A stretch of DNA of 64,000 nt from an uncultured Eubacteriales bacterium (GCA_934511365.1 CAKSWC010000003.1:116227-180226); one strand, 5' to 3'; numbered from the stretch's first letter, positions 5,685 through 22,736 are shown. Made by a program: numbers and translations. The notes: generated by a model not told the origin, from the sequence alone.

Positions 5685-5712
5685 TGGTCCGAGTGTTCAT
5701 AACGGACTTATG
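5685..5712. repeat. Left junction of the integrated element (attL-like): 11-bp direct repeat of the tRNA-Pro 3' end plus 22-bp terminal inverted repeat
   Basis: tggtccgagtg (5685-5695) is identical to 22726-22736. gagtgttcataacggacttatg (5691-5712) is the reverse complement of 22700-22721 with 21 of 22 matching. Confidence 0.55.
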
Positions 5713-5762
5713 AAAAACTCAGGTTTTATCGGCAGTTGCACACATTTCTCGCTCGCACATTT

Positions 5763-5791
5763 GTGGTTTATTCAATTTCTTCCTATAATAT
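5763..5791 (+). promoter_or_regulatory. Sigma-A-like promoter for tnpW/tnpV (TTGTGG-17-TATAAT)
   Basis: The element ttgtggtttattcaatttcttcctataat lies about 30 nt upstream of the RBS AAGGAGG. Confidence 0.4.
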
Positions 5792-5824
5792 GGACGTAAA
5801 ATACAAGCCAAGGAGGAAATGACT

Positions 5825-6004
5825 ATGAGAAATCCAAAATACCATCTGTATCTAACATCCGATGAACGGCGCACGGTTATCAACAGCCTGATTGATTTGA
5901 GAAATGAACTCATTTCTCAAGGTAGGTATACTGACATTGTTGACGAGCTGTTAATCAAGCTCACAAAAGCAAGAATCAAGAAAATAGAGATCAAGGAGGT
6001 CTGA
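5825..6004 (+). CDS. Small TnpW-family protein found in Tn4451-like elements
   Basis: MRNPKYHLYLTSDERRTVINSLIDLRNELISQGRYTD resembles the small proteins that pair with TnpV in clostridial serine-recombinase elements. AGGAGG is present, and the second ATG (5825) has the better spacing. Confidence 0.45.
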   Translation: MRNPKYHLYLTSDERRTVINSLIDLRNELISQGRYTDIVDELLIKLTKARIKKIEIKEV

Positions 6005-6007
6005 ATT

Positions 6008-18476: not shown

Positions 18477-19837
18477 AAGATGTTATCAATTACGCTGAAA
18501 ATCCTGATAAAACTATCGAGCGCAAATATCTTGATGATGACTTAGCTGCCGCTCTCAATTACGTTGAGAACAGCGACAAAACCGACCAAACAATGTACGT
18601 CAGTGGAATAAACTGTCCGAAGAAAAGAGCTTACGAGCAGATGATGACCACAAAGCGACGTTTCGGCAAGCTCGGCGGAAATGTAGCGTATCACGGTTAT
18701 CAGAGCTTTCAGGCAGGAGAAGTCACGCCCGAAGAAGCGCACCAAATCGGCATTGAAACCGCCAAGCAAATGTGGGGTAATGATTATGAGATAGTTGTTA
18801 CGACACATCTGAATACGGCAAACCTACACAATCATATCGTCGTAAATAGTGTATCGTTCCGCACCGGACGGAAGTTTGAAAATCATATTTCCGACCACTA
18901 CAAGCTGCGTGAGATTTCCGACGAGGTCTGTCGTGAGCACGGAAAATCTGTAATAGAAAACGCTCCGTTCTACGGCGGCGACAAGGCGTATTGGGTACGC
19001 AAGAGCGGACGAATACCGCACAAGGATATGCTGCGGCAAGATGTTGATGAAGCCTTAGCCAATACGATCAAGCCGTTTGATTTTGAATTATATCTTCGCT
19101 CGCTCGGCTATCAGTTTGTGCGGACTTTTAAATATCAGCATCCTTCCGTGATCGCTCCTGACTGGCTGAAACCTGTCAGATTAAGCAGTCTTGGCAAGGA
19201 TTACTCCAGAGAAGCGATACTCAGACGGCAGCAATCTCAGCGTGAGGATAAATACTTCGTGGATTTCTATTCCTATACGCCGAAATCTTATTATCAGCGC
19301 CAACCGCTGATAGTGAGAATCAGGGATTTTGAGAAAAGAACAGAACCCGATGTTATCACGGCGCTGTTTGACCTGATTATCACGATTGCCAAGCTCATCA
19401 CAGGCAACAATGTCCAAAAGAGAGATTACCGTCCGGTATCACCTGAGCTGCGGGCAGAAATCAGAAATCTCGACCGAACGCTGGCGGAATATCATTTTCT
19501 CCGTGACCACAACGTGGAATGTGCAGAGGATTTTGTGTCTTGCCGAAAGGAAATCGCCGAGCAAATCAAGGCTTATGAAACCGAGCGACAGCACATCCGC
19601 AACCGAATCCGCAGAGCTAAATCACCCGAAGAAAATAATTCTCTTAAAGAACAATGTAGAAAAATCACAAAAAAGCTGACACCCTTGCGTAAGCAGTTCA
19701 TTATCTGCGGGCGCATTGAAAACAAAGTGCTTCGACTCCGTGCTTTGATCGAACAGGAAAAGCAGCTGGAGCAAGGCAGATACAAGTACAAATATTATCA
19801 CCAAAATAAAACGAAACAAAGGAGTTATGAACGATGA
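18437..19837 (+). CDS. Relaxase/mobilization nuclease (MobA/VirD2 family)
   Basis: Has the three-His motif HLNTANLHNHIVVNSV and the expected N-terminal relaxase region (INYAENPDKT...). It overlaps the mobC end. Confidence 0.8.
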   Translation: MATTGFWPVKGRLKDVINYAENPDKTIERKYLDDDLAAALNYVENSDKTDQTMYVSGINCPKKRAYEQMMTTKRRFGKLGGNVAYHGYQSFQAGEVTPEEAHQIGIETAKQMWGNDYEIVVTTHLNTANLHNHIVVNSVSFRTGRKFENHISDHYKLREISDEVCREHGKSVIENAPFYGGDKAYWVRKSGRIPHKDMLRQDVDEALANTIKPFDFELYLRSLGYQFVRTFKYQHPSVIAPDWLKPVRLSSLGKDYSREAILRRQQSQREDKYFVDFYSYTPKSYYQRQPLIVRIRDFEKRTEPDVITALFDLIITIAKLITGNNVQKRDYRPVSPELRAEIRNLDRTLAEYHFLRDHNVECAEDFVSCRKEIAEQIKAYETERQHIRNRIRRAKSPEENNSLKEQCRKITKKLTPLRKQFIICGRIENKVLRLRALIEQEKQLEQGRYKYKYYHQNKTKQRSYER

Positions 19838-20682
19838 CCAATATATCAATCAACAAATTACACGAATTCAGAGACCACCCGTATCAGGTGCTCGACAATG
19901 AGGAGATGAACAGCTTAATCGAGAGCGTTCAGCAGCAGGGCATTATGACGCCGCTGATTGTACGTCCGTTAGAGGACACAACAGATGAATATGAAATCAT
20001 ATCGGGACACCGCCGCTTTCGTGCGGCACAGAAGGCAGGGCTCACAGAAGTCCCTGCCTTTATTCGTCCCGTCAGCCGTGACGAAGCAGCGATTATGGTG
20101 GTGGACAGCAATCTCCACAGGGAGCATCTTCTGCCGTCGGAAAAGGCGTTTGCTTACAAGCTGAAAGCCGAAGCGCTCAAGCATCAGGGACAGCGTACTG
20201 ATCTCACTTCGGAGCAACTTGCACCGAAGTTATCGACTGAGCTGATTGCCGAACAGGAGGAAACCAGCAAAGATACAGTAAAACGCTATATCCGTCTGAC
20301 AAAGCTTATCCCCGATATTCTCAAAATGGTCGATGAGCAGCGTATAGCTTTCAGTGTCGGCGTGGAGCTATCTTATCTAACCGAAAATGAGCAGCAGGAT
20401 TTGTTTGAAGCTATCGAGTTGTAGGACAAAACGCCCTCGCTCTCACAGGCGATACAAATGAAAAAGCTCTCTCAGGCAGGCAAACTTGACAGCGAAACCA
20501 TATCAAAAATCATATCCGAGGAAAAACCGAATCAGCGTGAGAAAATTAGTTTTCAAATTGAAAAGCTGACTAAATTCTTTCCGAAAAGTTACACCCCGAG
20601 AGATATCGAACGCAAAATAATCAAGCTGATTGAGGACGACTATCGTAGCCGTCAGCGAAACAAAAACAGGGAGGAAAGATAA
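19834..20682 (+). pseudogene. ParB/Srx-like nuclease-domain gene interrupted by an in-frame TAG at 20422-20424
   Basis: The ParB motif ISGHRRFRAAQKAG is present. ORF 19834..20424 and ORF 20458..20682 are in the same frame and separated by a single amber codon. Read through, the product would be about 282 aa. Confidence 0.5.
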
Positions 20683-20939
20683 TGAGTATTATACAGTCAC
20701 TTTACGGCGAAGAGCAAGAATACAAAGTCAACGGCGCTATCTACATTGTGTCGGCGGCGTTCAAGCATACAGGGCGGAAAGAGGACAACACCTCTTTTCC
20801 GACCTGTGTAAAAAAAATCCTCACAAGTGATTTTGCACATTTGATAATCACCGAGGGAAATGATACTATGGCAGCAGAAAATGTGTGTTCGGCTGCCGGA
20901 AAGGAGGACAACATTGCAGTCGAAAAAGAAACAGGATAA
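20682..20939 (+). CDS. Hypothetical small protein
   Basis: An 85-aa ORF coupled to the upstream stop by TAATG. No motifs recognised, and it overlaps the probable recombinase start. Confidence 0.2.
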
Positions 20940-22620
20940 GGCTGGCATTACCGCCTTGTACTGCCGCCTTTCCCGTGATGACGGCGTGGAAGGTGACAGT
21001 AACTCGGTCGCCAATCAAAAGAAATTGTTAAAACGTTTTGCAAAGGAAAATGGGCTAACCAATACCCGATACTATGTTGACGATGGCTATACAGGTACAA
21101 ATTTCGAGCGTCCCGGCTTTCAGAAGATGATCGAGGACATTGACCTCGGATATATCTCAACGGTGATTGTCAAAGATCTGTCCCGTCTCGGACGGCGATA
21201 CGATATGGTCGGATATTATATGGACACCTATTTTCCCGACAGAGATGTTCGGTTCATCGCCGTTAACGACAATATCGACAGCGACGAAGGTGAAAGTGAA
21301 ATTGCGCCGTTCAAAAATGTGTTGAACGAGTTTTACGCAAGGGACATTAGCAAAAAATGTCGATCATCCTATCGTATCAGGGGTAGCACAGGCGAGCCGT
21401 TAGCTCCGCCGCCATATGGATATATCAAATCTCCCGATAATCCTAAGAAGTGGGTTATTGATCCCGAAGCGGCACATGTCGTTCGTGACATCTTCAAAAT
21501 GGCGCTTGAAGGTAAGAGCAACGAAACGATTGCCCATATATTGCAGGAGCGCAAGGTGCTGATTCCTATGGCGTATTGGCAAGAAAAGGGTATTCGTAAA
21601 GGCGGTAAGGTCACACAGCCTAACAAATATAAATGGTGCAAAACTACCGTTACAAAGATTCTTACCCAGCAGGAGTATTGCGGCGATATCATCAACTTCA
21701 AGACGTATTCCAAATCATACAAGAATAAGAAACGCTACGACAATCCTAAAGAAAACTGGGTTATTTTCAAGGATGTTCACGAGCCGATTATCAGCCGTGA
21801 TGATTTTGAGCTGGTGCAGACGCTTGTCGTAAAGACAAAGCGCCGTGCTCCTAAACAGGAAAACGGCGAGAAGAATATGTTTTGCGATTTTCTTTACTGT
21901 GCCGATTGCGGCAGCAAGTTATGGTATCACACGAATACTACCAACAAGGAAATCCATTATTTCAGCTGTTCCAACTATAAGAAGGATACCCGTGGGAATT
22001 GCGAAACCCGCCATTATATCCGTGCCGACGCTATCGAGCAGATCGTTATGCTTGAATTAAAGAGATTAGCAAAGTATTTGGAATCCCACGAGGAAGAATT
22101 TGCAAAGCTCCTCGCCGAAAAAACCAATGCCGATATGTTGGCGGAGCAGAAAACCTTGGAAACAGAGCTAAATCGGGTAACCGCCCGAAATGAAATGCTC
22201 ACTTCGCTTTTCGCCAAAACCTATGAGGACAATGCATCGGGCAAGTTGAGCGATGAGATGTATATGGAGCTATCCCATAAATACGAGGTTGAACGTCTTG
22301 AACTGAAAACAAAGATTTTTGAGTACAAGGAGCGCCTTGCCAAAATCAGTGAAATGGAGCAAAACAAAGATGACTTTCTTAAAGCTGTCAGAAAGTTTAT
22401 GGAGATGGAATCCTTAACCGCACCAATGCTCCGGGAACTTATTGACCACATTGATGTGTACGAAAAAGAAGGCGGCAAAAAGAACTACACTCAACGTATC
22501 GTCATCTATTATCGTTTTGTCGGTTACTTAGAACTACCGTCATCAGATGACGAAAACTACAAATCCAACACCCGGAAGGGCGTAGATGTGGAGTATATTC
22601 CCACAGTGAAATCCGCATAA
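20914..22620 (+). CDS. Large serine recombinase (TnpX/TndX-like)
   Basis: Has the catalytic motif [10 protein letters not shown]...SNSVANQK and a long C-terminal domain with Cys cluster and coiled coil. The likely start is TTG at 20914, 6 nt after AAGGAGG (the ORF track begins at 20860). Confidence 0.85.
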
Positions 22621-22687
22621 GACAAAAGGCGAGCAGGCACAAAACCTGCTCACCACATACAAACCGGATGAAATTGAATAAAAGAAT

Positions 22688-22736
22688 GAGTGTCCATAAC
22701 ATAAATCCGTTATGAACACTCATACTGGTCCGAGTG
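22688..22736. repeat. Right junction (attR-like): palindromic site plus the tRNA 3' end
   Basis: gagtgtccataac-ataaatcc-gttatgaacactc is an imperfect palindrome at 22688-22721. The 22-bp terminal inverted repeat occupies 22700-22721, followed by atac and then tggtccgagtg (22726-22736), which is the 3' end of the tRNA. Confidence 0.5.

Follow-up and report, generated by a model that had tools for sequence, protein, structure and literature searches.

Genes and features of the locus

The DNA analysed here is a stretch of 64,000 nt from an uncultured Eubacteriales bacterium (GCA_934511365.1, CAKSWC010000003.1:116227-180226; the whole stretch is called the window, and all positions refer to it). 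A 17,041 bp element at positions 5687-22727 adjoins the 3′ end of an intact tRNA-Pro(GGG) gene, the sole tRNA gene of the window. The interval is very probably an integrative mobilizable element (IME) that was inserted by way of its own large serine recombinase. It is flanked by housekeeping genes: the left side has ferredoxin, uvrB and uvrA, the right side pntAA, pntAB and pntB. The G+C content is 30–36% in the 6–14 kb part of the window against 43–47% in the flanks.

The element combines backbone genes, a block of cargo genes and terminal attachment (att) sites (Table 1). The recombinase carries the N-terminal motif YCRLSRDD and shares ca. 40% identity with annotated TndX across 92% of its length, while the best match in a phage collection reached at most 42% identity. 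PF03432 was the only relaxase family matched in the domain search, and NCBIfam matches were of MobP type. Among the large open reading frames (ORFs) of the interval, none matched a type IV secretion system (mating-pore) or coupling-protein family, and no tyrosine recombinase (Phage_integrase domain) was identified among its ORFs. Of the attributes that define an IME, an own integrase, att sites, an empty site in a relative, and a relaxase without mating pore or coupling protein were found.

Table 1. Features of the element and of its boundaries, in window coordinates.
Feature	Position	Strand	Evidence and remarks
Native hairpin with U-run	5632-5680	-	-20.9 kcal/mol, z -4.5, followed by UUUUUUGUUU
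attL copy of the 11-mer TGGTCCGAGTG	5685-5695	+	predicted crossover TG at 5685-5686
P-right half-site of attP, GTCCGAGTGTTCATAACGGACTTATG	5687-5712	+	matches the reverse complement of 22700-22725 at 23 of 26 positions
ORF of no assigned function	5825-6004	+	59 aa (61 aa from ATG 5819); always upstream of tnpV and kept together with it in all copies; no Pfam, NCBIfam or PHROG match, and no TnpW or other match even at E up to 5
TnpV	6008-6364	+	PF14198, E 7e-46
Type II restriction endonuclease (cargo)	6458-7669	-	PADLOC REase_II, E 2e-120
Fused C5-cytosine and Eco57I-type N6 DNA methyltransferase (cargo)	7666-10182	-	PF00145, PF07669; PADLOC MTase_II, E 1e-267
STAND NTPase, 1239 aa (cargo, candidate defence gene)	10304-14023	-	weak: PF25199, E 7e-8 (below Pfam cut-off), PF20720, E 8e-7; no PADLOC match
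305-aa protein, weak sigma-70 similarity (backbone)	14057-14974	-	TIGR02937, E 5e-8 (below cut-off); phrog_351 sigma factor, E 2e-6
DUF6076 protein (backbone)	14971-16107	-	PF19553, E 4e-46; >1000 homologues
Cys_rich_VLP small protein (backbone)	16390-16626	+	PF14194, E 1e-18
ParM-like actin-family protein	16631-17566	+	PF17989 ALP_N, E 2e-13
108-aa ORF at the ParR position	17550-17876	+	no significant family match
Iterons, four TGACGGCA copies, one inverted	17874-17935		candidate centromere-like
Perfect 10-bp inverted repeat	18050-18073		upstream of the nikA-like gene; candidate oriT hairpin
NikA-like relaxosome accessory gene, ribbon-helix-helix	18119-18476	+	frame-corrected: PF21983, E 2e-13
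Relaxase, MobA/VirD2-like nuclease domain	18437-19837	+	PF03432, E 6e-40
ParB-like gene	19834-20682	+	PF02195 (ParB_N), PF17762; premature TAG at 20422-20424
85-aa ORF	20682-20939	+	overlaps the recombinase start in all copies; no family match
Large serine recombinase, 568 aa (586 aa from ATG 20860)	20914-22620	+	Resolvase, Recombinase, Zn_ribbon_recom, DUF4368
Right-end hairpin, 16-bp stem, then UCUUUUAUUC	22686-22723	-	begins 3 nt past the tRNA 3′ end; one arm is the attP left arm
P-left half-site of attP, outward GTATGAGTGTTCATAACGGATTTATG	22700-22725	-	invariant in ~30 close relatives
tRNA-Pro(GGG)	22726-22802	-	ARAGORN; 3′ part serves as right half of attB
Promoter-like site of tRNA-Pro	22824-22852	-	TTGACA, 17 nt, TATAAT; 12/12 consensus

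A first-pass annotation made from the sequence had recognised a large serine recombinase beside the tRNA gene, a relaxase without conjugation machinery, and a cargo of restriction-modification and NTPase genes, all of which the domain and PADLOC searches bore out. Of its gene names, TnpV and those of the ParM-like, relaxase, ParB-like and recombinase genes stood, whereas TnpW, ParR and MobC found no family support: the supposed TnpW is the 61-aa ORF, which has no TnpW signal, and the supposed MobC is a NikA-like gene carrying a +1 frameshift.

Insertion site and empty site

The last 11 nt of the tRNA-Pro(GGG) gene, on the plus strand TGGTCCGAGTG, are present at 5685-5695 and at 22726-22736, and these are the only two occurrences in the window even when one mismatch is allowed (the arithmetic chance of an exact 11-mer recurring in the window is ca. 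0.03). Just inside them lie the terminal inverted repeats 5691-5712 and 22700-22721, which match at 21 of 22 positions. The 13-nt half-site GAGTGTTCATAAC lies at 5691-5703 (plus) and 22709-22721 (minus), and its third copy with one mismatch, at 22688-22700 (plus), creates a palindrome at the right end.

A metagenome collection was scanned for the empty site with 10 nt of the left flank joined to 18 nt of the tRNA as query, and one contig, OIXL01015293.1 (L001), was obtained. Its order in window orientation is uvrA 3′ end, hairpin, a single TGGTCCGAGTG, tRNA-Pro, and pntA. Positions 683-1856 of this contig align to window 22726-23899 with 98.7% identity and positions 155-693 to window 5157-5695, the two alignments overlapping in precisely the 11-mer. 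In addition, nine independent copies of the element, from other metagenomes and with unrelated flanks, show homology to the window that begins at 5685. The empty site, these nine copies and the drop in G+C confirm the discrete element of about 17 kb that the first-pass annotation had proposed at the 3′ end of tRNA-Pro(GGG). The positions that it had given for the tRNA, the direct repeat and the inverted repeats proved exact (ARAGORN and sequence comparison), and the empty site reads from uvrA to tRNA-Pro with one 11-mer, as it had predicted; nor is the 11-mer a common repeat of the window.

Over the ~330 nt leading up to the insertion point, contig L001 and the window are nearly identical, whereas uvrA is 87% identical overall and far more diverged further upstream, a pattern which suggests a recombination mosaic in uvrA.

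Attachment sites and crossover

When the right end of the element in the window is joined to its left end, the sequence reads cataaatCCGTTATGAACACTC-ATAC-TG-GTCC-GAGTGTTCATAACGGacttatg. The attP site reconstructed in this way has perfect arms of 15 nt and a 10-nt spacer with TG in its middle, and its general form would be ...CCGTTATGAACACTC-ATAC-TG-GTnC-GAGTGTTCATAACGG.... The P-right arm was found at the left end of every sister copy. Read outward from the TG, the motif GGAYTT is located at +18 in both halves of attP, and at +13, within the T-arm, in the tRNA half of attB, both here and in 13 of the 15 tRNA targets. A distal motif lying 5 bp nearer the centre in attB than in attP is a hallmark of large serine integrase sites, and this half-site offset is reportedly derived from the structures of A118 integrase on DNA.

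In about 40 right junctions the element ends with ...CACTCATAC and the chromosome continues with TG, so that ATAC followed by TG is constant; two right junctions outside tRNA genes retain the TG and then continue as TGTG... and TGAT.... The crossover was mapped at two sites that are known in both occupied and empty versions. The flank of L058 adjoins an intact tRNA-Pro(TGG) gene, ending TGGTCGAGGTG, in the empty loci L055 and L056, and the occupied version reads TGGTACGAGTG-TTCAT. The flank of L057 is present twice, once beside a tRNA-Leu(GAG) gene ending TGGTGCGAGTG, and once beside an attL that reads TGGTACGAGTG. At both sites all bases to the right of TGGT are derived from the element and only TGGT is common with the target, and therefore exchange took place within TGGT. 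The centre of the palindrome points to TG as the probable crossover dinucleotide. At 22726-22727 this TG is, on the tRNA strand, the CA of the CCA end, so that an exchange there leaves the tRNA complete.

Two other schemes were considered and did not hold. If the crossover were always at a second TG, positions 10-11 of the 11-mer, attL should derive from the target, and in L058 and L057 it does not; a target-site duplication fails in that the canonical attL is no copy of its own target.

In L057 the region downstream of tRNA-Leu(GAG) is duplicated ca. 1.3 kb apart (8186-8426 and 9519-9684), with one copy beside the tRNA and the other beside the left end of the element, which implies two tandem tRNA-Leu(GAG) genes, one of them occupied. 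At the tRNA-Pro(TGG) site, the two bases before TGG are AC in two element lineages (L060-L063 and L115/L116), and TT in a third lineage (L058) and in the empty site (L055/L056). The attP also has AC before TGG (CAT-AC-TGG). The difference is either a host polymorphism or a further sign of exchange outside the 2-bp core.

tRNA targets and distribution

In a scan of one genome per species, 53 related loci were found in rumen and gut Ruminococcus, Acutalibacteraceae, Oscillospiraceae and Eubacterium, many of them with recombinases 95–98% identical. Among ca. 40 related copies, nearly all have their right end directly at the 3′ end of a tRNA gene, the tRNAs being Pro (GGG, TGG, CGG), Leu (CAG, TAG, TAA, CAA, GAG), Tyr(GTA) and Met(CAT). 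The recombinase is identical over 568 residues in the window copy at tRNA-Pro(GGG), in two copies at tRNA-Leu(GAG) (L066 and L068), and in one at tRNA-Leu(TAG) (L067), and recombinases at least 95% identical occur at no fewer than six tRNA genes. More than three target genes are therefore used by one 90% cluster, as in the multi-targeting DUF4368 clade. That sister copies sit at several tRNA ends by means of the same recombinase is unusual for large serine recombinases.

The complete genome of Ruminococcus sp. JL13D9 (NZ_CP162392.1) has three recombinase-related loci (L006, L039 and L047, two of the three as partial matches), at tRNA-Leu(TAG), tRNA-Pro(CGG) and tRNA-Pro(TGG), and L062 contains two elements 3 kb apart; hence multiple copies per genome are common. 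In several loci (L003, L047, L014, L025, L069-L071 and L103/L104), the right end is followed by only 13–24 nt of the tRNA 3′ end and then by unrelated DNA, and the complete tRNA is found 0.25–8.7 kb beyond (e.g. L003 11849-20465; L047 10731-10987). Here other islands that use the same tRNAs, with 13–14-nt repeats, appear to have been inserted between the element and the tRNA (accretion). A small resolvase gene lies between element and complete tRNA in L103 and L104.

Right-end palindrome and predicted integration

The right-end palindrome folds with -22.9 kcal/mol (z -5.2), and in a consensus scan it was terminator-like on the minus strand, with a 16-bp stem and a T-run. In 20 distinct relatives 92.7% of the cells were paired, and six pairs had changed on both sides. 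The commonest one-sided change was from U-A to U-G (10 of the 20 relatives at one pair), which is a wobble on the minus strand and a C-A mismatch on the plus strand. The native hairpin, which adjoins the tRNA in the empty site and also follows uvrA, is now 17 kb away from the tRNA and constitutes the left chromosomal half of attB. The right-end palindrome is accordingly predicted to be a terminator supplied to the tRNA by the element, one attP arm being reused as half of the stem. The first-pass annotation had assigned both the terminal inverted repeats and the larger palindrome to attP arms; this is correct for the former, whereas the latter is more probably a minus-strand terminator.

In the mechanism that we propose, a circular form carrying attP would have recombined with the chromosomal attB, catalysed by the large serine recombinase of the element. 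The right half of attB would be the 3′ part of the tRNA gene (acceptor strand and T-arm) and the left half whatever comes after the gene, with strand exchange at the central TG. The tRNA would be kept whole and its own terminator, displaced by 17 kb, would be substituted by the hairpin of the right end. The recombinase is envisaged to recognise TGGT, a loosely defined acceptor strand, and then the GGAYTT of the T-arm at +13; these features are common to several tRNA genes, so that a single protein could be active, from host to host, on the genes for tRNA-Pro, tRNA-Leu and other tRNAs. Transfer would take place by mobilization, with the relaxase and the candidate oriT acting together with a co-resident conjugative system, and the ParM-like and ParB-like genes may stabilise the excised circle.

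Relation to plasmids and to known mobile elements

The ParM-like and ParB-like genes and the TGACGGCA iterons would also suit a low-copy plasmid with ParM/ParR and ParB segregation that is occasionally parked in a tRNA gene, and the DUF6076 and sigma-like proteins could hide a replication role. This origin is improbable, as family searches of the interval recognised no replication initiator, a megablast of the backbone gave no match in 72,556 plasmid records, the circular junction was not found in IMG/VR, and all of the ~50 retrieved copies that reach an element end are chromosomally integrated.

Closer in gene content are the Tn4451/Tn4453 transposons of Clostridium, which have a TnpX-type recombinase, excise as a circle, reinsert at GA with low specificity, and are mobilized by the relaxase TnpZ. 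The first-pass annotation had called the element Tn4451-like, and TnpV as well as the DUF4368 recombinase, with its resemblance to TndX, speak for this, the DUF4368 clade having been described as multi-targeting and TndX-like (PMC10083194). The likeness further includes the nature of both as IMEs of Clostridia, the large serine recombinase, and, as predicted here, excision and integration through a 2-bp core. Membership of this group is nevertheless very improbable, and it is already contradicted on relaxase type and target. According to the IME review of Guédon et al., IMEs with serine recombinases insert within genes, and Tn4451 has a MobV relaxase and recombines via a 2-bp core (PMC5704250); the relaxase here is of the MobA/VirD2 type (PF03432). 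Moreover, no TnpW signal was detected, the junction dinucleotide is an invariant TG instead of GA, nearly all of the ~40 insertions are at tRNA 3′ ends, and the recombinase gene is placed at the other end, from where it faces outward, with a different gene order relative to the joint. The additional ParM, ParB, DUF6076 and sigma-like backbone genes, and defence cargo in place of catP, likewise set the element apart. What remains of the Tn4451-like label is TnpV and the DUF4368 recombinase clade.

With the DUF4368 TndX/TnpX-like clade of Durrant et al. 2022, in which one recombinase cluster was found at many target genes, the recombinase shares the same four-domain architecture and the use of many targets (PMC10083194). 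Unlike the AT-rich or loose targets of that clade, the targets here form a structured class, the tRNA CCA end with the distal motif in the T-arm; the main text of that study makes no mention of tRNA (PMC10083194).

The nearest precedent is that of the Dehalococcoides ssrA islands, in which the CcrB-like serine recombinase DsiB is associated with a 20-bp repeat of the tmRNA gene end (McMurdie et al. 2011, PMC3146451). These islands resemble the present element in having a serine recombinase, insertion in the 3′ region of a tRNA-like gene, a repeat of the gene end, frequent tandem arrangement, and cargo. However, they use ssrA as a single target and insert inside the T-loop, where the 20-bp repeat restores the gene, whereas the exchange here is at the CCA end of many tRNA genes that need no restoring. 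Islands with tyrosine integrases share the insertion at the 3′ end of a tRNA gene, the preserved tRNA and tandem accretion, but the enzyme family is unrelated. Our literature search returned no description of a serine recombinase that uses the CCA end of several tRNAs, and integration exactly at this position of several tRNA genes by one serine recombinase, with a putative built-in replacement terminator, is to that extent new.

Variable 11-mer beside attL

If exchange always took place at TG, the next 9 nt at attL should be element DNA and as conserved as the rest of the element, and this was not observed. In a lineage with 97.8% identity to the window, and also in a diverged relative, attL has TGGTACGAGTG beside four to five different flanks, with tRNA-Pro(TGG) and tRNA-Leu(GAG) as targets where these are known; this version makes the palindrome nearly perfect. 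The window's own lineage (the window, L059/L073, L109 and L115/L116, with an identical 59-aa protein and 99.5–99.7% DNA identity) carries three different 11-mers, each equal to a real tRNA end. The window has TGGTCCGAGTG at tRNA-Pro(GGG), and L059/L073 (one contig) has TGGTGCGGGTG at tRNA-Leu(TAG), both identical to the end of the occupied tRNA. In L109 the attL reads TGGTGCGAGTG and the flank is homologous to the region downstream of tRNA-Leu(GAG), so that a match is probable. The same Leu-GAG type was found in L115 and L116 at the tRNA-Pro(TGG) site, and in L052, a 6-kb relative, at tRNA-Leu(CAA). Between the window and L059, two of the 11 positions differ where a divergence of 0.26% predicts ca. 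0.03 differences, and chance is therefore an unlikely cause. An assembly artefact was also considered and rejected: 6 shared nt would not suffice to mislead a k-mer assembler, and L113, L114 and L117, which are independent assemblies, have this junction as well.

To judge from these junctions, the 11-mer moves with the element, and yet it tends to match the end of an actual tRNA, in most cases the occupied one. Tentatively, and with rather more doubt than confidence, we suggest that the recombinase family takes the general shape of tRNA 3′ ends for one half of attB and may exchange strands in either of two registers, which lie 9 bp apart and correspond to the TG of CCA and the TG of positions 10-11. 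Integration would then use the first of these TGs, and an excision that now and then used the second would copy the 11-mer of the old target into attP, so that the element would keep a “memory” of its last tRNA and would be selected to match the tRNA most used in the host. This is one model; it fits all junction cases, but few junctions support it, and we know of no precedent for exchange in two registers. Both fully paired matching copies carry inactivating mutations, which makes slow change in place an alternative.

That the 11-nt repeat itself is the functional core, with the element carrying a tRNA end and recombining by homology as the islands with tyrosine integrases do, is scarcely credible, since the identity of both ends here, in L059/L073 and probably in L109 is countered by the lack of a tyrosine recombinase in the interval, by sister copies at tRNA-Pro(TGG) and tRNA-Leu(GAG) that share only TGGT with their target, and by the one close relative with a Leu-GAG-type 11-mer at a Pro-TGG site. 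The direct repeat noted in the first-pass annotation is real, but is probably not a product of the recombinase.

The IME inserted by its own serine recombinase is the reading that we retain, and it is carried by the boundaries, the empty site, the architecture of the att sites, the distribution over several tRNA genes, and the gene content. Several observations weigh against it. The match of the attL 11-mer to the target tRNA end in three insertions (the window, L059/L073 and probably L109) is not predicted by a single fixed 2-bp crossover, although TG is invariant at the right junctions and the junctions of L058 and L057 fit a single core. The left half of attB, i.e. the sequence past the tRNA, shows no conservation between sites and no GGAYTT motif, which is unusual for a serine integrase site. 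Compensatory changes in the right-end palindrome are equally expected if both arms bind protein, and only the G-U pattern favours RNA. No replication gene was recognised in the element, and for oriT there is a candidate only. With regard to excision, the circular attP junction, the search for which the first-pass annotation had proposed, was absent from the IMG/VR scan, and so was the left end of the element; the right-end pattern returned three prophage-adjacent copies without a left end, and a looser left-end pattern returned one further canonical attL and three chance matches.

Finally, paired attL and attR were not obtainable for most sister copies. Pairing of the ends via a 78-aa protein joined L059 with L073, whereas the 85-aa protein led to short contigs only, and the contigs of the DUF6076 representatives P0126 and P0144 break within the element. 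For UvrA (whether begun with V or with M), the window NTPase and the 305-aa protein, no identical protein was on record.

Lesions and cargo exchange among copies

The sister copy L067, 99.7% identical to the window copy, was taken as reference for lesions. Relative to it, the nikA-like gene has a 1-nt insertion at 18272, which causes its frameshift, and the ParB-like gene has a change from GAG to TAG at 20422, leaving 196 + 74 aa in place of the 282 aa of sister copies. Both lesions recur in L065 and L075, which are independent assemblies of the same insertion, and they are therefore not sequencing errors. As a consequence, the window copy is probably impaired for transfer, though its recombinase and relaxase are intact. 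In an otherwise 99.7% identical copy at tRNA-Leu(TAG) (L073 14495-16201, also L074), the recombinase is split into ORFs of 323 and 190 aa, and this copy is probably immobile. A 31-nt insertion relative to L067 (window 17885-17915), between the 108-aa ORF and the nikA-like gene, adds one TGACGGCA copy.

The same backbone is associated with other cargo in L072 (a type I restriction system and a SLATT protein) and in L096-L098 (WYL, AAA and DnaB-like genes). Conversely, in L082-L091 tnpV, the 59-aa ORF and the STAND NTPase (93% identical) lie in an unrelated element with tyrosine integrases and HTH_17 and HTH_36 genes, where another restriction-modification pair, of XamI type, accompanies them; the NTPase cluster representative P0003 belongs to this element. 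The block of tnpV and cargo, being shared with this tyrosine-integrase element, thus moves as a module between backbones.

Elsewhere in the window, a second stretch of low G+C (37–39%) was observed at 52000-56000, with an 862-aa ORF at 53699-56287, and a 1630-aa ORF is located at 47223-52115.

Implications

Serine integrases are prized for genome engineering on account of their short sites and their independence of host factors. The general view is that they avoid tRNA genes (PMC7192596). The element described here would provide a natural serine integrase that lands right after the CCA of several tRNA genes, leaving the tRNA intact and bringing a predicted terminator of its own, and such sites would therefore be conserved and harmless landing places in almost any bacterium. 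If the variable 11-mer is derived from the target, it would mean that a serine recombinase exchanges DNA outside the 2-bp core, which would challenge the textbook mechanism. For the gut and rumen Ruminococcaceae and their relatives, the family represents a widespread shuttle of defence cargo, in which restriction-modification systems of types I and II as well as STAND NTPases were found.

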